Positions 25,246-47,705 of a stretch of 64,000 nt of DNA are shown here, piece after piece. Within the stretch, counting starts at the first letter, position 1; each line of letters opens with the position of its first letter. The notes under the pieces are model-generated. The model did not search any database and was not told where the DNA came from. It was given only the letters and a program-made list of their open reading frames with translations. The position numbers and the translations under genes are program-made. Source of the stretch: a virus (taxonomy: Duplodnaviria > Caudoviricetes); the IMG/VR virus record IMGVR_UViG_2737471636_000001, positions 25,331-89,330 of that record, one strand, 5' to 3'.

Positions 25246-25911
25246 GTGAAACCAACTTCCCTCTATAAATATTTGCCCTTCGAGTTTGTTCCATCAGTTC
25301 TTAATCGTGGCGAAATTCTTTTTAGAAATTTGACGTATTTTAGGCAATATGAAGGAATCATTCGAGGTGATGTCTATGAAAGTATTTTCAGACATAGTCC
25401 CCAAAATGAAACTGTTTTTAATATTCTTACAAATGGAAAAAAAATTGTATTAAAAACATCTTTCTTACATTCCACTGACTCTGAGCAAATATATGCTTAT
25501 TGTCTTTCTGAACAACTAAGTAAAAATTTAATGGTGGAGTTTAAAAGCAATGCTTGTATTGAAATTTTTAATCCACACGAATTTATTCGACGAGTAAGAT
25601 TTGCAGTAATGCGTCTTATATCAGTGCATAGTAATGGATTATTAGCTCAGCCTGTAATTTATTATGATGCTGTTAATGTACCTGACTTTGATTACAATGA
25701 TCCGAAAAAAATTATTTTCGCGAAAGAAAATTCGTATGCATGGCAAAATGAATACAGGCTGTGTTTTGGTAAAAAAAGAGCATTTAAATTTAAACAAGAA
25801 TTCACTTTAAAAATGTACGATCCCCATATTGAAGCAATGAAAGGTGTATGCAAAGATAAAATTATTAAGATCGGAAATCTGAAAGATATTGCCCGCCTAA
25901 TAATTCCCTAA
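25246..25911 (+). CDS. AT-rich hypothetical protein
   Basis: LYKY...YCLS...K..Y.WQNEYR pattern seen in DUF2971-like cargo proteins. Confidence 0.6.
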   Translation: MKPTSLYKYLPFEFVPSVLNRGEILFRNLTYFRQYEGIIRGDVYESIFRHSPQNETVFNILTNGKKIVLKTSFLHSTDSEQIYAYCLSEQLSKNLMVEFKSNACIEIFNPHEFIRRVRFAVMRLISVHSNGLLAQPVIYYDAVNVPDFDYNDPKKIIFAKENSYAWQNEYRLCFGKKRAFKFKQEFTLKMYDPHIEAMKGVCKDKIIKIGNLKDIARLIIP

Positions 25912-34626: not shown

Positions 34627-34814
34627 TATTTAAAACCAATAAAAAACCCGCATGCTTGAGCGATCAAACACACGGGTATAAAACAAGCGGACATTATTAA
34701 AACGCCTGTCAGAAGTTTTGCGCGATTCCGACTATGCGATACGGGTCGCACATCGCGCTGCGGTATATCCAAAGAATAAACTGATGGCCTAAGGATATTG
34801 TTCATTTCATTCAT
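34626..34814 (-). CDS. Small membrane protein
   Basis: 62 aa coupled ORF with TM segment. Confidence 0.45.
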   Translation of the reverse strand: MNEMNNILRPSVYSLDIPQRDVRPVSHSRNRAKLLTGVLIMSACFIPVCLIAQACGFFIGFK

Positions 34815-35277
34815 TGAATGAGTTGTAAAGCTGAGTTGTTATTTGCATCAGGTGCAAAAGTAAGGGTCTCAATTTTTGACGCTCACTTGCATCAAAATGA
34901 AAATCTTGTGCGGCATCGCTGCCTTCTTTTAGTAGCGTGGAAGTGCTGGCAACCAAGGATAGGAAAGTTTTTACCTGACATTTTGGTTCGGTTTGTTCCA
35001 GCGACAGATCCACATCAATGGTTGCCTGACCGATTAAGTAAGCCAGTGAAAAAATAGTGGCTTTGGCCTGGCAATGAATAATGATTTCTAAAAGGACAGA
35101 AAAAGAAGGCGGTAATGCTTCATGATCCGGATTCAAATGATTGGCAAGTGTTGTTGGATTCATTCCCAGCACACCTGCCAACGCGGTAATTCCGCCAGGA
35201 AATTTCTTGGCATCAGCTTGCAAAGACAGAAACAATGATCTGTAAATCTGCTTTGTTAATCTAGATGAATGTCTCAT
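34807..35277 (-). CDS. Phage regulatory CII-family protein
   Basis: PGG..ALA..LGM...TL...LNP motif; downstream of cro. Confidence 0.75.
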   Translation of the reverse strand: MRHSSRLTKQIYRSLFLSLQADAKKFPGGITALAGVLGMNPTTLANHLNPDHEALPPSFSVLLEIIIHCQAKATIFSLAYLIGQATIDVDLSLEQTEPKCQVKTFLSLVASTSTLLKEGSDAAQDFHFDASERQKLRPLLLHLMQITTQLYNSFNE

Positions 35278-35347: not shown

Positions 35348-35590
35348 TCATGCCGCTTTTTCTGATTTTGGTTCATCGATTGGGTAAATGCTGGGGCTCA
35401 ATCTATGCCGAGTTACCCTGCAAGAAGTAGCTTTTTCTATTGGAATTACAAAGTCAGGGTTGATAACACCATGCCTAAGCCAGTAACTAATGTTTTGCTG
35501 TTTAGTTCCTATAGCTTCGGCCAGCAAGGTCTGAGAACCCAGGATATGAATGGCCTCCAACAATGCAGATTGCTGTATTTTATTTTTCAT
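35348..35590 (-). CDS. cro: Cro/YdaS-like repressor
   Basis: GSQ..LA..IG.KQQ.IS.W...IE.AT...VTR..L.P.IY. Confidence 0.85.
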   Translation of the reverse strand: MKNKIQQSALLEAIHILGSQTLLAEAIGTKQQNISYWLRHGVINPDFVIPIEKATSCRVTRHRLSPSIYPIDEPKSEKAA

Positions 35591-35597
35591 TTTTAAA

Positions 35598-35682
35598 ATT
35601 GTATGACTGAATCGTTTACAAGTCTATTTGTAGCAGATAACAAAGAGACTTGTCAACAACAATACAAATTTATTTGTATCAT
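35598..35682. promoter_or_regulatory. OR region: three ACAA-N6-TTGT operators with PR and PRM
   Basis: Operators at 35617-32, 35639-54, 35663-78; minus-strand TAGACT-N17-TACAAT; plus-strand TATCAT at 35677-82. Confidence 0.8.
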
Positions 35683-35689
35683 TTCCAAT

Positions 35690-36142
35690 ATGAAAGAAGA
35701 ATTTTCAACCTACCGAGGAAGATTGAATTGGGCGCTTAAAAAGGCGGGAATGAGTCAGACTGATCTGGCCAAGCTTTGCGGCTTGAAACCACAGGCTGTT
35801 CAATATTTGTGCGATCAAAAAAATAATGCTCAAGGAAGTATTCATAACGCGAAATTTGCTCATCACTTAAAGGTATCAGCGCTATGGTTAGAGGCAAATA
35901 TGGGAGAGCCTTTAACTGAGGACAGATTAAAGGAAGTTGAGAAAGAACTGGAAAAAACTAAAGAAGACCTTAATAAAACAATAGATACGGTAAGGTCATG
36001 GGGGGTTGAGGATATTAATTCTGTAGATGTTGAATTATCAGAGATATTTAGCAGCGCTTACAAAGTGAGAGTTGAGGATAGACCTCATGTCACCAAAATC
36101 GTTAAGACTTTTATTAGAAAACCAAGAAAGGCAGAAGGATAG
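35690..36142 (+). CDS. CI-like repressor (HTH, no recognisable S24 peptidase domain)
   Basis: RL..ALKKAGMSQTDLA..CG...VS..WL; divergent from cro; start moved to ATG 35690. Confidence 0.8.
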   Translation: MKEEFSTYRGRLNWALKKAGMSQTDLAKLCGLKPQAVQYLCDQKNNAQGSIHNAKFAHHLKVSALWLEANMGEPLTEDRLKEVEKELEKTKEDLNKTIDTVRSWGVEDINSVDVELSEIFSSAYKVRVEDRPHVTKIVKTFIRKPRKAEG

Positions 36143-36254
36143 ATACGATTCAGAAGGAAATATTAGAAATATAAGTGATCGATGCGAATTTTATCGATGT
36201 AAATGCAAAACAGGATGAACACTTAAGAACTTCGATCCCGATTTTAATTTTGTA

Positions 36255-36369
36255 AAGATAAATGCGCCGTTTAGGTGAAGTGCAGTTTTGACTTAACCCA
36301 GTTATCCAGTGAACTCCATGACACATAGATAACTGGAAGATTCGGAAAACATTGGGGGGCTCCGAATCT
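36255..36369 (-). ncRNA. Sibling sRNA 1 (terminator degenerate)
   Basis: Hairpins AGAUUCGGA/UCCGAAUCU and CCAGUUAUC/GAUAACUGG; box 36403-36418 at -41.5. Confidence 0.6.
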
Positions 36370-36424
36370 TCTTTTATTATTTATTAAATTAATAAATTAG
36401 TTTGTTCGATAGTTAACAGTGAAG

Positions 36425-36555
36425 AAAAAAGCGCATCCACAAAAGTAAATGCGCTTTCATCAAGGAGAAAATTGAAATGAAAACCCGGTTATTACTGAGA
36501 GTATGGGCTCAGAAATAACCGGAAGATTCCAAGTTTATTGAGAAACATAGAATCT
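36425..36555 (-). ncRNA. Sibling sRNA 2
   Basis: Three hairpins, AAGCGCA..UGCGCUUUUUU terminator; box 36589-36604 at -41.5. Confidence 0.75.
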
Positions 36556-36610
36556 GGAAAAATAATGCCTAATTCATTTAAATTTTTATGTTCGGTGTCT
36601 AACGTTAAAT

Positions 36611-36742
36611 AAAAAAAGCGCATCTACAAAAAGTAAATGCGCTTAAAGCCTCGAGAATTATGAAACCCGGTTAATCTCAATGTGCCCTAATGAGTACAAC
36701 AATAACCGGGAGATTCAATGCTGATTGAGAGACACCGAATCT
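36611..36742 (-). ncRNA. Sibling sRNA 3
   Basis: Same architecture; box 36776-36791 at -41.5. Confidence 0.75.
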
Positions 36743-36794
36743 ATTAAAATAATGACTGATTTGGTTTGATACGTATGTTCGATTTCTAACTTAT

Positions 36795-36902
36795 AAAAAA
36801 AGCGCATTCCCAGGGAAGAACGCGCTTAAAGTGCAGAAACACGATCCGGCTATAACGGAATAAGAAATAGCCGTAGATTTAGGAACAGGAGTAACTAAAT
36901 CT
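36795..36902 (-). ncRNA. Sibling sRNA 4
   Basis: Same architecture with compensatory stem changes; box 36936-36951 at -41.5. Confidence 0.75.
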
Positions 36903-37052
36903 AATTTAAATTTATTAGAAAATTGATCCCTCTTCTGTTCATTTCCTAACAGAAATGAATTTTTTAAGATGGGTCTATACAGCAATCTCTTATATAGCTG
37001 CTGGCTGGACTGCAATTACTTGGATTTTTGGCAAGAAGAAACGCAGCATTAT

Positions 37053-37157
37053 AAAGAAAGCGCGTTTCTTAAAATGGGGATCAAGAAACGCGCTTAAATG
37101 ACAACCTCTTGAGGTAGATTGAAGGGCCATTCACAATATACTCCCTCCAATGTGAAT
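37053..37157 (-). ncRNA. Variant structured RNA within the array
   Basis: 13-bp AAGCGCGUUUCUU terminator-like stem plus AUUCACA/UGUGAAU hairpin; no clear box. Confidence 0.45.
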
Positions 37158-37267
37158 ATTTTGTGATAATAAAACACATACTTTAGATAAATAATATATT
37201 CATAAATCTGCCATTGTTGCAGATCAATACTAATAATTTGTAAAAATATCCAGGGTGTTGAGAAAAC

Positions 37268-37388
37268 AAAAAAAGCGCACCCACCTGGAGTAAATGCGCT
37301 TAAAGTGCATGAACAACATAACCGGCTATTTACTGGCTTAAGGAAATAGCCGGAGATTTAGCAAAAGCCTACGGGAGTTACTAAATCT
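37268..37388 (-). ncRNA. Sibling sRNA 5
   Basis: Same architecture; G-U pairs only on the minus strand; box 37422-37437 at -41.5. Confidence 0.75.
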
Positions 37389-37459
37389 GTGAAGATGATC
37401 GCTCACTTTCAGTCGTTATTCTGTACGGTTTGTAACAAAACTTATATTAATAATTCCAA

Positions 37460-38734
37460 ATGGCCCGCTCAATCGCCCTCATCGATGTCAATAACTTCTA
37501 TGTAAGTTGCGAGAGAGTTTTTAATCCAAAGCTCGAAGATGTGCCGGTTGTGGTGTTATCCAATAACGATGGCTGCGCCGTCGCCAGAAGCAATGAAGTA
37601 AAAGCTCTTGGTGTAAAAATGGGCCAACCGTGGTTTCAGCTAAAAGATCTTGCCAAAAAACATGGAATCATAGCCTACTCATCCAATTACACGCTATACG
37701 CCGATATGAGCGACCGGGTAATGAGCATACTATCGGAATATAGCCCCAACCAAGAAATCTATTCGATCGATGAATGCTTTTTGGATCTTACTGGATTCCA
37801 GGAGCATACCAATTATGGGCAAAGCATCAGGCAGAGAATCAAACAATGGACTGGATTGCCGGTTTGCGTCGGAATTGGTGGTACCAAGACACTTTCTAAA
37901 CTGGCCAATCATGTTGCAAAGAAAAATGCTAACTTTAACGGTGTCTGCGATCTGAATGCTTTTTCCCCTGCCCTGCATGATGAATGGTTGAGCCGTATTG
38001 AAGTAGGTGAAGTTTGGGGAATCGGCAGAAAACTTGCACCCAAACTGAATAAACACGGAATTAAAACTGTCCTGGATTTGAAAAATTCCAATTCAAAACG
38101 TCTCAGGGAGGAATTCAGCGTGGTTATGGAAAAAACTATCCGTGAATTGAATGGTGTGCCCTGCATCGAACTGGAAGAAATCTCGCCACCCAAGAAGCAG
38201 ATCATCAGCTCAAGATCGTTTGGTATAACGGTAAAAGATCTCAAGAGCCTGGAACAATCAGTATCCTCTCACATTGCCAAAGCTGCAGAAAAATTACGCC
38301 AGCAACAATCATATGCCGGTTCGGTACATGTATTCATCACCACAAGCCGGTTCAATAAGCCAGAAGAGAACTATCACAACACCTATAAGATCAAGCTTCC
38401 AACGCAATCGGCCGATACTATTTTACTCACCAAAGCGGCGTTGTGGGGGTTGCACAAGATCTATCGAAGCGGATACAAATACAACAAAGCCGGAGTAATG
38501 CTCTCGGATTTTGTAACTAATGAGAATCGTCAGAACGATATGTTCGGTCTTAGATTGGAGGATGGTAAATCAAAACGTTTAATGAAAGTAATGGATCAAA
38601 TTAACGCTAGAATGGGCAAGGGAACTATTAAGTTAGCTTCGGAAGGCACTGATCAGCATTGGAATATGAAGCAAGGTAGTAGGAGTCAAGGTTTTACGAC
38701 AAAGTGGGATGAGTTGGTTACAATTGATGATTAG
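37460..38734 (+). CDS. umuC: Y-family DNA polymerase V subunit
   Basis: [32 protein letters not shown]-terminal W.MKQ..RS..FTT.W. Confidence 0.95.
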
Positions 38735-41223: not shown

Positions 41224-41466
41224 ATGAACTATTCATCATTGCAAATCCCCTCTAGACCATCACCAGATTACATTCCACCAACTGATCCTCAGCCTGAGAC
41301 TATACCGCCAGAACAAGAACCCCCCTTTGAATCACCCCCTGAAATAGAACCTCCTGAGAGAATCCCTCCAATCCGCGATCCAGAAATTCCCGTCCCTGAG
41401 GGGAATATTAATTTAGAAAACAAACCCGCCTCGGCGGGTTTTTTATTGTGCGCCATCGAACAGTAA
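41224..41466 (+). CDS. Proline-rich small protein
   Basis: RBS AGGA; box 41158-73 and TAAAGT -10; PEP-type repeats. Confidence 0.6.
   Translation: MNYSSLQIPSRPSPDYIPPTDPQPETIPPEQEPPFESPPEIEPPERIPPIRDPEIPVPEGNINLENKPASAGFLLCAIEQ
41422..41444 (+). terminator. Intrinsic terminator (near-identical copy at 45147-45170)
   Basis: AACCCGCC-TC-GGCGGGTTTT. Confidence 0.7.
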
Positions 41467-41521
41467 ATAATCACACAAAATTAGATAATAATTATTCCAT
41501 CCTTAAAAAGGAGTAAATATT

Positions 41522-41710
41522 ATGCAATTATCTAAATTAGGCGGCAGTGTTCCACCTCAACCTATTCCTCCTGAAGTTTTGCCAACAGTCAAAGACGCGC
41601 CAGAAAATCCTAAAGAAGATGATCCAGAATTAGAAATTCCAGATCAACCATTCCAACCGGATAAAGTTCCACCCTTAGAGGAGCAGGAACGAGATATTCC
41701 TCAAGAATGA
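41522..41710 (+). CDS. Proline/acidic small protein
   Basis: RBS AAGGAG; box 41447-62 and GATAAT -10. Confidence 0.65.
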   Translation: MQLSKLGGSVPPQPIPPEVLPTVKDAPENPKEDDPELEIPDQPFQPDKVPPLEEQERDIPQE

Positions 41711-41754: not shown

Positions 41755-41973
41755 ATGAAGAATATTCAAATCATCGATAAATCATTTGGTCAAAAAGTTG
41801 GAGAATGTGCAATATTGGTTGATCTAGAGAATGGACAAACAGATCAAAGTTTTATGGATTCTGCTTGGAAAAGAGCCGTTGCGGAAGGATGGGTTGATGA
41901 AAATTATCGAGAGAATTATGATATGGAAATAGTTGGCGATATGCCGCTAGATCATAAATCCGAGACTTTGTAA
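41755..41973 (+). CDS. Small acidic protein, paralog family member 1
   Basis: MKNIQII...AW..AV.EG.VDE..RENY. Confidence 0.8.
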   Translation: MKNIQIIDKSFGQKVGECAILVDLENGQTDQSFMDSAWKRAVAEGWVDENYRENYDMEIVGDMPLDHKSETL

Positions 41974-43037: not shown

Positions 43038-43256
43038 ATGAAAAATGTTCAAATAATCGATAAATTATCCGGTCAAATAATTGCAGAATATCCGATATTT
43101 GTAGATCTCATTGATGACCCCGTAGATCAAGATTTTATGAATGATGCGTGGGATATTGCCGTGGAAGAGGGTTTGGTTGATGATGATGACCGCAAATGCT
43201 ATAAATTGGAAATATTGAGCGATATACCGCTAGATCATAGCTCAGATTCCTTGTAA
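43038..43256 (+). CDS. Small acidic protein, paralog family member 2
   Basis: Aligns end to end with 41755 ORF; RBS GGGAG. Confidence 0.8.
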   Translation: MKNVQIIDKLSGQIIAEYPIFVDLIDDPVDQDFMNDAWDIAVEEGLVDDDDRKCYKLEILSDIPLDHSSDSL

Positions 43257-44160: not shown

Positions 44161-44264
44161 ATTTTCTAAGATTAGTTAGAAATCGTACATATTATTCCTT
44201 TTTTATTTTTTAGACTATTTTCAACTGGTCATTTGCCAGTCAATTTCTTATAGAGGAACTACTC

Positions 44265-44612
44265 ATGAATACTAAAACTTCCAGAAATAAAGATAATGAT
44301 CAATCTGACAATACTTCTAATCGCGGCTTTGCTTCTATGGATCCGAAGAAACAACGTGACATAGCCAGTGAAGGTGGGCGTGCAGCTCATCAAAAAGGAA
44401 CGGCTCATGAGTTTGATTCAGATGAAGCTGCCGAGGCAGGTCGGAAAGGTGGTCAAGCGCAAGGAAAAAATCAATCCTCTTCAACTTTGCATCGAGGGCA
44501 AAGCAATAGAAATAATGAAAACGATGAGGATAGTGGCAACGCATCTTCTGCCCGTGGCGGTTCATCGCAACAACATGCTGAAGCCGGAAGACAGAGCCAC
44601 AAAAATAAATAA
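44265..44612 (+). CDS. KGG-repeat general stress protein (YciG/GsiB-like)
   Basis: RGFASMD..KQR.IAS.GG, HEFDSDEA.EAGRKGG; box 44174-89 and TAGACT -10. Confidence 0.9.
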   Translation: MNTKTSRNKDNDQSDNTSNRGFASMDPKKQRDIASEGGRAAHQKGTAHEFDSDEAAEAGRKGGQAQGKNQSSSTLHRGQSNRNNENDEDSGNASSARGGSSQQHAEAGRQSHKNK

Positions 44613-45113: not shown

Positions 45114-45244
45114 GCAAAATTCGTCCAGTATTTAAAGTGAATTTTCAACCCGCCTCGGCGGGTTTTCTTTTGTGTGCAATCGAACAGATCAAAATAAACT
45201 CAATTTAGATAATGTATTTTTCATTCTTAAATGGGATAAGAATC

Positions 45245-45463
45245 ATGAAAAACATTCAAATTATTGAGAAGTCATCGGGTCATAAAATTGCTGAATATCC
45301 TTTCCTATTTGAATTTTATGAGGATCAAAGCGAGCAGGATTTTATTGATGATGCTTGGGAATTAGCTATGGAGGAAGGTCTAGTAGATGAAAGTTGCCGC
45401 GAAAATTATGATTTAGAAATTATTGGTGATATAACGCCAGATCAACAATCAGAATTTTTGTAA
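45245..45463 (+). CDS. Small acidic protein, paralog family member 3
   Basis: MKNIQIIEK...AWELAMEEGLVDE..RENY; box 45171-86 and GATAAT -10. Confidence 0.8.
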   Translation: MKNIQIIEKSSGHKIAEYPFLFEFYEDQSEQDFIDDAWELAMEEGLVDESCRENYDLEIIGDITPDQQSEFL

Positions 45464-45484: not shown

Positions 45485-46153
45485 ATGTGTGGTCGTTTCG
45501 CTTTGGACTATCCAGGTGCAGTACTGTCAGATTGGTATCAAACTGTAAAAATTCCCGATCTTTACAAACGATATAACATTGCGCCTGGAACAGATATTCT
45601 AATCATCCGAGAGACTTCCAAGGTCAGAGAAGGATCAATGGTACGTTGGGGATTTGTACCCAGGTGGGCGAAGGATTCTAATAATCTTCCTATGCTAAAT
45701 AATGTACGCGCCGAAAAGATTGCATCTAAACCAATATTCAAATCAGCTTTCATGCAGCAAAGATGCATTATCCCTGCATCTGGATTTTTTGAATGGAAAG
45801 CGCGACATAATGATAATCACAAGCAACCATTTTATATATCAACTGGAGATGGTTGTCCTGTTTCTTTTGCCGGAATTTGGGAGACAACCAGAATTAATGG
45901 AATTACTATTGAAAGCTGCGCAATAATTACCACAGAATGCAATGATTTAATGGGTCCTATCCATGATCGCATGCCAGTTATTCTTCCACCAGAGACGTTT
46001 ACCGCATGGCTTAACCCTTCACCACTTCCACGAGAGATTCTGAAATATTTTTTAAAACCATTTGTTTCAAAAAACATGACCGCTTGGCCGGTCTCAACAT
46101 CAATAAACAAATCTACGAACCAGGGAGAACAATTAATCCAGCCTATTAGTTGA
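45485..46153 (+). CDS. SOS response-associated peptidase (SRAP/YedK/HMCES family)
   Basis: MCGRF N-terminus, RYNIAP, RCIIPASGFFEW, IHDRMPVIL. Confidence 0.95.
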   Translation: MCGRFALDYPGAVLSDWYQTVKIPDLYKRYNIAPGTDILIIRETSKVREGSMVRWGFVPRWAKDSNNLPMLNNVRAEKIASKPIFKSAFMQQRCIIPASGFFEWKARHNDNHKQPFYISTGDGCPVSFAGIWETTRINGITIESCAIITTECNDLMGPIHDRMPVILPPETFTAWLNPSPLPREILKYFLKPFVSKNMTAWPVSTSINKSTNQGEQLIQPIS

Positions 46154-46325: not shown

Positions 46326-46523
46326 ATGTTTAAAAAAGTTATTGTTAAAGATAGAACATCGCGAGAATTAGTTAATGAATACTTAATTGAATTAAAACAG
46401 AATCTTTCAAGAGAAGAGATATTTAACCATGCCTGGCAAAAGATTGTTAACGATGGTTTAGTAGATGAATCTAATCGTGATAATTATTTTATGAAAATCC
46501 AAGACGAGAATCTAATAATCTAA
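46326..46523 (+). CDS. Small protein, paralog family member 4
   Basis: AWQKIVNDGLVDESNRDNY; RBS AAGGAG; box 46255-70 and TATCAT -10. Confidence 0.75.
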   Translation: MFKKVIVKDRTSRELVNEYLIELKQNLSREEIFNHAWQKIVNDGLVDESNRDNYFMKIQDENLII

Positions 46524-46723
46524 TTAATTGATCTTTACAAATCTAACCGTCGTGGTGGCGGATTTGTTGGCCGTAATCCTTATTCCCTTCTTTCCGTTTT
46601 TCTTCGCAATTAATCTAATTCCCACAAATTTTAGTGAATAATTTTATTATCTATAAATTGTTTGCTATCGAACAGTGAATTATTTGCCGTTAAAGGAAAA
46701 TGATTAATTAATAGGAGAAATAA

Positions 46724-46906
46724 GTGTTGAGAAGAGTTCGTATTGTTAAAAAAGCTACTGGCCAACAAGTAGCTGAATTTCCATTGCTACTAGATGACAA
46801 AGCATCAGAGCAATCATTTTTTGATAAAGCATGGTTTCGTGCAATTGATGAAGGATCTGTAATTGAGGCGAATAAAATTAATTATGAAATAGCGTTTACT
46901 GACTGA
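46724..46906 (+). CDS. Small protein, paralog family member 5
   Basis: GQQVAEFP...AWFRAIDEG.V.E..NY; RBS AGGAG; box 46659-74. Confidence 0.75.
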   Translation: MLRRVRIVKKATGQQVAEFPLLLDDKASEQSFFDKAWFRAIDEGSVIEANKINYEIAFTD

Positions 46907-47120
46907 ACTTTAATATCTCACGCTTTTTTTTGGAATTGTAATTAAATTTGCCTTATACCTCAAAATAATGCGGAGAACTAATCTTTGAATTCATTATTGA
47001 TACAACATACTTACAAATAATTATAATTTTAAGAAGATTAATGATGAAAAACTTAAATTTTTAGAATATATTACTCAGAAATAATGATCTTTTTTTCTGT
47101 AAATTTATGGATTATTTCTA

Positions 47121-47705
47121 ATGAATGATTTTTGTATTATAAACCAATTAGTTAAAGATAGTTTTGCAAATAATCATGCAATAGTAGTTATTCTCCAATC
47201 TAAGGAAAGAATACATCTTATTGAAGAATCGAAACAACTAGGCATTGATATTGAAGAATTAAAAAGTTCCGGACGGATTAAATTTTTTGATGCAGGGTTA
47301 TTCCTTTCTAATTTTGTTATCAGTGAAGCGCAGCTTGATACCGAAAATTTAAAAAATTCAATAAGTCATGCTATTAATAATTCAAAATTACACTTTAGCC
47401 AGGTTTTGTTAATAGATGGAATGATTGATATGCTTTTAAGAAAAGGAAACCAAGAATCTGCAGTTTTCCTTGAAAACCAAATACAAGCAATGGCTTCGCA
47501 ACAAGGGTTTGATTTATATATTTATGACTCTGTGGTTAAACCTGTCACTGCTAATGAATATTCGGAGTCATCTTCGGAAGAAAAATCCATTATGACATCC
47601 ATTGAAAATTCAGTAAGAAATGGGCTGGAAACAGCTGGAAATACTTTAGAAAATCTTGCAAAACCTTCACCTAGTAAACTTAAATCTTTTACGTTCCCAA
47701 TTTAA
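47121..47705 (+). CDS. MEDS-like sensory domain protein
   Basis: GIDIE....G.I.FFDA...L..F, GM.D.L...G....A..LE pattern. Confidence 0.55.
   Translation: MNDFCIINQLVKDSFANNHAIVVILQSKERIHLIEESKQLGIDIEELKSSGRIKFFDAGLFLSNFVISEAQLDTENLKNSISHAINNSKLHFSQVLLIDGMIDMLLRKGNQESAVFLENQIQAMASQQGFDLYIYDSVVKPVTANEYSESSSEEKSIMTSIENSVRNGLETAGNTLENLAKPSPSKLKSFTFPI

Follow-up and report, generated by a model that had tools for sequence, protein, structure and literature searches.

Five tandem sibling small RNA genes predicted beside the cI gene of a Nitrosomonas provirus

The provirus of IMG/VR record IMGVR_UViG_2737471636_000001 (Duplodnaviria; Caudoviricetes) is 89 kb long, and the part of it analysed here, positions 25,331 to 89,330, is referred to as the window (64,000 nucleotides (nt)). 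Between the cI-like repressor gene and umuC lies a gap of 1.3 kb that holds five units on the minus strand, arranged head to tail. We propose, with a probability of about 0.7, that this gap comprises five separately transcribed sibling small RNA (sRNA) genes of ~110-135 nt. They would belong to an uncatalogued Nitrosomonas family, act in trans, be expressed from promoters of a host CRP-type stress regulon and have been amplified as prophage cargo next to cI. The host of the provirus is evidently a Nitrosomonas, because the proteins that share the 90% cluster of the window UmuC carry the source name Nitrosomonas ureae. Searched against plasmids, this UmuC returns betaproteobacterial matches only, at no more than 57.6% identity.

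Anatomy and folds of the array

The five units are located where an earlier annotation made from the letters alone (the initial annotation) had placed them, on the minus strand of window positions 36255-37440. In each, a 16-bp box is followed by a 21-nt spacer, a -10 hexamer, 6 nt, and the AGAUU that opens hairpin 1. Hairpin 2 (CCGGUUAU type), a U/C-rich linker and an AAGCGC...GCGCUU stem with its U-run complete the unit. The repeat length is ~185 bp, and the T-run of each terminator abuts the box of the following unit, head to tail. RNAfold reports three hairpins in all five units, each folding better than its shuffles. Two covariance models were used to score them and to search for relatives: R1, for which the five window units and four from a sister provirus (L028) were used, and R2, rebuilt on 22 copies.

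36255-36369, minus strand: predicted sRNA unit 1 (hairpins 1 and 2, linker; 3' arm of the terminator lost); z -2.8; R2 76.5 bits
36425-36555, minus strand: predicted sRNA unit 2; z -9.9; R2 112.7 bits
36611-36742, minus strand: predicted sRNA unit 3; z -5.6; R2 105.9 bits; terminator predicted
36795-36902, minus strand: predicted sRNA unit 4; z -6.2; R2 70.7 bits; terminator predicted
37268-37388, minus strand: predicted sRNA unit 5; z -4.7; R2 77.8 bits

The terminator of unit 1, correctly described as degenerate at the outset, is truncated, because the unit 1 orthologue of the related provirus (L028:8052-8190) keeps the full, intact stem (z -6.0). The minus-strand polarity assigned earlier also holds: the minus strand scores 79-127 bits with the covariance model versus at most 32 bits for the plus strand, two figures that are not independent of the call since the model itself was built on the minus strand, and T-runs follow the stems on the minus strand only. 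Promoter-like matches on the plus strand inside units 2 and 3 were discarded as the reverse reading of AT-rich -10 and loop sequences.

The gap had been said to contain no credible open reading frame (ORF). Five ORFs of 43-74 residues overlap it, and none of the five has a Pfam match, which speaks against the idea that the repeats are genes for small peptides on the plus strand. Unit 2 does carry a plus-strand ORF of 13 codons behind a Shine-Dalgarno-like AAGGAG, but this frame is not kept, being reduced to 4 codons in unit 3 and lacking a start codon in unit 4. The repetition and the variable copy number of the units would equally suit a non-autonomous mobile element resembling a miniature inverted-repeat transposable element (MITE). 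However, the repeat search lists no inverted-repeat pair flanking any unit, no target-site duplications were seen, and the units abut head to tail; a MITE was rejected on these grounds. With the low plus-strand score added, both the mobile element and the peptide genes are very improbable explanations. A type III toxin-antitoxin RNA array was also considered. In ToxI-like arrays, short tandem repeats are transcribed as a single precursor and immediately precede the gene of an endoribonuclease toxin. The window units were not assigned to this class, as they measure ~185 bp, have individual promoters and terminators and are not followed by a minus-strand ORF.

Between units 4 and 5 the gap holds two further features:

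36955-37101, plus strand: ORF of 48 residues, relic of a PEP-CTERM C-terminal tail (by-eye comparison)
37045-37135, minus strand: sixth, shorter hairpin-plus-terminator element with a ATCACAAAA-type upstream element; z -5.4; terminator 37095-37058

The relic, which has no Pfam match of its own, was recognised by eye against the ends of the intact PEP-CTERM genes of two related proviruses, L173 and L028. The sixth element, which adjoins this relic, is kept in L028 and L173 and gives no match with the family covariance model.

Covariation and copy-number variation

Compensatory changes in the stems had been noted among the window units. RNAalifold analysis of the paralogues (nine sequences) reports such changes in 7 of 22 pairs, and the signal is far stronger in the wider family. 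In a model-free alignment of 15 sequences (MAFFT and RNAalifold), the three hairpins are recovered and 18 of 30 pairs are changed on both sides. Among 27 model-aligned copies, 92.2% of cells pair, versus 74.9% in shuffles, and 25 of 31 base pairs show double changes; none of 500 shuffles reaches the observed values, and slid-partner controls are paired at 33-43%. All ten pairs of helix 1 and seven of the nine pairs of helix 2 change on both sides. Within unit 2, a GAG/CUC to GGG/CCC compensatory change separates the window from L028 and from an allele in sequencing run X4.

Run X4, which is DNA, contains two alleles of unit 2 and two joined forms, 36343->36600 and 37168->37475, that skip 256 and 306 bases. 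Unit 5 is missing from L028 and from one X4 form. The number of units differs among closely related strains or within one, and these joined forms and alleles, together with the absence of unit 5 from L028, indicate that the variation arises by recombination between units.

Promoters and the host regulon

The promoters of the five units, read on the minus strand, are as follows:

36376-36418, minus strand: predicted promoter of unit 1; box TGTTAACTATCGAACA (36418-36403); -10 AATAAT (36381-36376)
36562-36604, minus strand: predicted promoter of unit 2; box CGTTAGACACCGAACA; -10 CATTAT
36749-36791, minus strand: predicted promoter of unit 3; box AGTTAGAAATCGAACA; -10 CATTAT
36909-36951, minus strand: predicted promoter of unit 4; box TGTTAGGAAATGAACA; -10 TAAATT
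37395-37437, minus strand: predicted promoter of unit 5; box TGTTACAAACCGTACA; -10 GATCAT

The motif GTTAnnnAnnGnACA is exact in all five. A TGT-N10-ACA box had been claimed for every unit, and a box is indeed present in each, although the first T of TGT is found in three of the five only (unit 2 begins with CGT and unit 3 with AGT). The distance from the end of the box to AGATT is 33 nt in all five units, hence a centre at -41.5 if we assume that AGAUU is the start of the transcript. The -10 hexamer lies 6 nt upstream of this putative start, with A(-11) and T(-7) invariant. No -35 element is seen in the aligned unit promoters, and the units drew no minus-strand call in the promoter scan. Six sites of the window show the box plus -10 pattern where 0.04 are expected, and none of 100 shuffles reaches six.

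Across the family, 19 of 27 copies possess the box, which stands 33 nt before the first modelled RNA base in 18 of these 19; the other eight of the 27 display a different, conserved upstream element (ATCACAAAA..CTTCATAA type). All 19 box-bearing copies have GT at positions 2-3 and ACA at positions 14-16, and 14 of them have T at position 1. The dyad can be written TGTKnG-N4-CGmACA (16 bp), and its TGT-N10-ACA geometry is that of CRP and NtcA sites. A 16-bp TGT-N10-ACA dyad near -41.5 in place of a -35 element is the layout of class II CRP/FNR promoters. The activator-type site proposed at this position is supported by the fixed distance in 18 of 19 copies and by the linkage of CRP-family genes described below. 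A LexA box was rejected, the dyad being 2 bp wider than CTGT-N8-ACAG, the LexA consensus.

Five host genomes together contain the box plus -10 pattern 124 times, versus 41 times for the reversed control, and many of its sites are near-perfect TGTTCG-N4-CGAACA palindromes. Ten proteins encoded downstream of boxes were scanned: five match the CsbD, DUF1328, PRC-barrel, fatty-acid desaturase and PEP-CTERM families, and the remaining five returned no family above the cut-off. The richest box cluster contains a regulator gene (cNMP-binding and HTH_Crp_2 domains) and a MEDS-domain gene. According to a comparison of coordinates, 9 of the 13 CRP-family genes in the five host genomes have a box within 2 kb. 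One of the neighbouring CRP-family genes lies at L251:11866-12609. At E<=1e-40, CRP-family genes are detected in 55 of 121 Nitrosomonas genomes, with up to 7 matches per genome. Such a match exists in 10 of 11 sRNA-positive versus 45 of 110 sRNA-negative genomes, a comparison confounded by paralogy and phylogeny.

Genes of the CRP/FNR family are expanded in Nitrosomonas, and several have a box in or beside their own promoter region. At another host locus (L252:3000-3340, minus strand), a box and -10 are followed by ~300 nt devoid of any ORF of at least 40 residues. Matching box sites occur in G123, G048 and G066, the box being at the same relative place in the four genomes. This segment may be another non-coding RNA of the box regulon.

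Distribution of the family

The covariance model called for by the initial annotation was built, and it finds homologues that have no counterpart in Rfam. R1 reports 14 sites and R2 18 sites, in both cases in 11 of the 121 Nitrosomonas genomes; on a family-level sample of 151 genomes, R2 matches only those 11. Among the genomes searched, the sRNA family thus appears confined to a part of the genus Nitrosomonas. Several copies sit between housekeeping genes (e.g. L204, L206), several are convergent with PEP-CTERM genes and have their terminator in common with them, and one adjoins a KGG gene. A three-unit array (G019:C2) lies beside another cI/cro/cII region; arrays adjoin cI/cro/cII in the window, in L028 and in G019:C2.

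A phage-specific origin is not borne out: 11 of the 121 Nitrosomonas genomes contain copies, several of which sit between housekeeping genes. The family is not a phage invention, and the prophage array appears to be an amplification of a host-type gene. Pattern searches of viral and metagenome contigs contributed the sister provirus L028 only. The phage collection gave no match to the whole gap with blastn in its distant mode. The box plus AGATT pattern occurs at 49 loci of viral contigs, mostly by chance, and L028, the one locus of the 49 that was inspected, alone has three matches at array spacing. The hairpin-2 pattern occurs at three viral loci and is real only in L028. Nine metagenome loci with the terminator plus box pattern give no model match better than E 0.056, and a Nitrosomonas genome with a loose pattern match (L136) gives no model match.

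The units had not been recognised as a described family, and this stands: Rfam 15 reports no match at gathering thresholds over the whole window. The 18 homologue loci return no sRNA family at E<=0.01, the only matches at that level being three tRNAs and one SurA match (25.8 bits; gathering score 100). The best match below threshold is the trpB motif (RF04312), with 33.8, 29.8 and 24.4 bits on units 2, 3 and 5. This motif is described as a candidate riboswitch in 5' untranslated regions of Firmicutes and Fusobacteria, its P1 containing an anti-terminator (PMC11109978). Like the window units, it has a hairpin, a U-rich linker and an intrinsic terminator. It was rejected as an identity, since the best score of 33.8 bits compares with a gathering score of 59 and the match spans hairpin 2 and the terminator only. 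Moreover, each unit comes with a promoter and a terminator of its own, no same-strand gene lies downstream, and the host is a Nitrosomonas. A full-text literature search for Nitrosomonas small RNAs and stress regulation found no relevant description.

The association with PEP-CTERM genes raises the question of whether the units are RNA genes at all, or relic regulatory DNA, that is bidirectional terminators of PEP-CTERM "morons" with promoter fragments, multiplied by recombination in fast-changing cargo. Such an origin would suit the frequent convergent placement of family members and PEP-CTERM genes, with one terminator serving both, as well as the relic of a PEP-CTERM tail within the array, the copy-number differences between strains and the truncation of unit 1. 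But hairpins 1 and 2 are not terminators and yet keep their pairing (10 of 10 and 7 of 9 pairs double-changed), copies such as L204 and L206 have no PEP-CTERM neighbour, and the promoter spacing is exact to the base in 18 of 19 copies. We therefore consider relic DNA an unlikely source of the array.

Transcription and possible targets

All sequencing runs were available as assembled contigs, which carry neither strand, ends nor expression level. As a weak hint of transcription, one metatranscriptomic library yielded a 201-nt contig that matches every base of 36157-36357 and spans unit 1 with the tail that lacks a terminator. A second run, the type of which is only guessed, contains a similar contig. 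The X1 contigs cover only part of umuC, and stretches left uncovered in X1-X3 carry no information. The unpaired loops and linkers of the units are C/U-rich. The riboregulator role proposed initially stands in so far as the units have the marks of independent sRNA genes (fold, covariation, own -10 and own terminator), whereas base pairing with targets is suggested by the anatomy alone; the further idea that the RNAs are guides found no support. Duplex energies calculated with the full-length sRNAs were uninformative for targets.

Several observations weigh against five trans-acting sRNA genes under a common activator. The RNA evidence consists of one contig without strand or ends, from a library that may contain DNA, and one from the run of guessed type. 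Tested against 448 translation-start regions of the provirus, the unpaired segments form duplexes no better than shuffled segments do. The presence of CRP-family genes in 55 of 121 genomes, up to seven in each, leaves the activator a putative one, and one sRNA-positive genome (G034) has no CRP-family match at E<=1e-40. In two of the five window boxes the first T of the dyad is missing, and the left half-sites of these two are weak. The different upstream element in 8 of 27 copies indicates that control is not uniform. Lastly, the covariation counts include paralogues and close relatives, and model-fitted alignments lean towards structure; the result of the model-free alignment agrees with the model-aligned figures.

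The C/U-rich loops also bear on a different role, in which the RNAs would not target mRNAs and would instead be decoys or sponges for a protein or RNA, in phage defence, counter-defence or immunity control. In a variant, unit 1 would read through as an antisense RNA into the 3' end of cI. The array is beside the immunity region and convergent with cI, unit 1 is devoid of a terminator, and the RNA-library contig reaches 36157, which leaves 15 nt to the stop codon of cI. The G-rich loop of the sixth element, in its predicted fold, could in addition pair with the C-rich loops of the units. On the other hand, no repeated GGA-type protein-binding motif is present, the loops being C/U-rich, and unit 1 of L028 retains its terminator. 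Furthermore, copies without recognisable phage genes nearby lie behind the same stress-type promoter, which points to a role in host physiology. A decoy function is accordingly rated as rather doubtful, and the proposal of five sibling, trans-acting sRNA genes is retained.

Provirus setting and cargo island

The array is located beside the immunity region of the provirus, with the following neighbours:

34807-35277, minus strand: CII-like gene (match to the CII family)
35348-35590, minus strand: YdaS/Cro-like gene (match to the YdaS/Cro-like family)
35603-36142, plus strand: cI-like repressor gene, convergent with the array (HTH_3 just under the Pfam cut-off)
37460-38734, plus strand: umuC (Y-family polymerase), divergent from unit 5 (Pfam IMS, IMS_C, DUF4113)
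44175-44216, plus strand: box and -10 site upstream of a KGG stress-protein gene, 44265-44612 (pattern match; Pfam KGG)
46660-47705, plus strand: one-mismatch box, ORF of 60 residues (46724-46906) and MEDS-like gene (47121-47705) (pattern, protein homology)

The umuC gene has no adjacent gene of umuD size, either in the window provirus or in its relatives L173 and L175, and a SRAP (YedK-like) gene is found in the same cargo island (45485-46153). Beside the umuC of L175, a different, two-hairpin RNA-like unit is present (L175:2855-2950, minus strand). Its promoter (CGTACAGAA...GATCAT) resembles that of window unit 5, and there is a likeness between its first loop (AUCUCUCAUCAG) and the unit 3 loop of the window (UCUCUCAAUCAG). 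This unit suggests that the loop rather than the scaffold is what is kept.

The promoter of the KGG gene is the sixth box plus -10 site of the window. The MEDS-like protein shares 26% identity over 126 residues with a host MEDS protein (E 3e-15), the gene of which adjoins a CRP-family regulator gene. The ORF at 46724, directly behind the one-mismatch box, is one of five paralogous plus-strand ORFs of 60-83 residues (41755-41973, 43038-43256, 45212-45463, 46326-46523, 46724-46906); the two of the five that were scanned have no Pfam match. Small proline-rich ORFs with IPPE/PPEI repeats occur in the cargo island (window 41224-41710, plus strand) and, beside chromosomal sRNA copies, in L201 and L202 (1065-1278, minus strand). 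It looks as though the island was put together from genes that are also found next to the sRNA on host chromosomes.

These parts allow a wider, tentative view of the 12-kb island between cI and the left operator. It could possibly be a portable extension of the general-stress regulon of the host, under CRP-type control, made up of the five sRNAs, the KGG and small stress proteins behind the box and the MEDS-like paralogue. With it, the phage would reprogramme stress responses or dormancy of the lysogen, or exclude rival phages via diversifying riboregulators.

Comparison with known systems

Tandem sibling sRNAs, including NgncR_162/163 (NmsR/RcoF) of Neisseria, have been described (PMC4211561, PMC9973317, PMC5362039, PMC13104608). 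The window array resembles such sibling sRNAs in that neighbouring paralogous genes each have a promoter and a terminator of their own and share transcriptional control, and in that a conserved scaffold is combined with C/U-rich unpaired regions. Other sibling sets are CcsR1-4 of Rhodobacter, LhrC1-5 of Listeria and Qrr1-5 of Vibrio. Structurally, the array belongs to this class: five paralogues, each having its own -10, box and terminator, share a three-hairpin fold, their transcription being predicted. No similarity in sequence or model links the window units to the siblings of Neisseria, Rhodobacter, Listeria and Vibrio: the units have no Rfam match at the gathering score, and their homologues have none at E<=0.01. 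The array also differs in consisting of five prophage-borne copies with a CRP-type dyad at -41.5.

As regards promoter type, FnrS and CyaR of enterobacteria are sRNAs transcribed from FNR- or CRP-dependent promoters, and the FNR site of FnrS overlaps the -35 region at about -41.5. Likewise, the promoters of the window units lack a good -35 and possess a site of TGT-N10-ACA geometry for what would be a dimer of the CRP/FNR family. The half-sites differ (TGTKnG/CGmACA versus TTGAT/ATCAA or TGTGA/TCACA), and, unlike the window array, FnrS and CyaR are single-copy chromosomal genes whose RNAs are unrelated. Altogether, the genus-restricted sRNA family is uncatalogued, sibling sRNAs are a kind already known, and the locus reveals no new mechanism.

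Proposed working and significance

If we assume that the units are expressed as proposed, a host activator of the CRP/FNR family would bind the box and recruit RNA polymerase to sigma-70-type promoters devoid of a -35 element. The five sRNAs would then be made together with a general-stress-like set of proteins (CsbD, DUF1328, PRC-barrel, KGG). In each RNA, the scaffold formed by hairpins 1 and 2 and the rho-independent terminator would display the variable C/U-rich loops and the U/C-rich linker. These may pair with mRNAs at G-rich or ribosome-binding regions, perhaps with the help of Hfq. The prophage would carry the sRNA genes beside its immunity region as cargo expressed in the lysogen, and unequal recombination would amplify and diversify them.

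Nitrosomonas species are ammonia-oxidising bacteria, which carry out the opening step of nitrification in soil, water and wastewater plants. For this genus, the locus yields a testable sRNA family, defined by the covariance models R1 and R2, as well as a promoter motif that marks a general-stress-like regulon and comes with candidate CRP-family regulators. It would also provide an example of a temperate phage that amplifies host-type regulatory RNAs as cargo of the lysogen.

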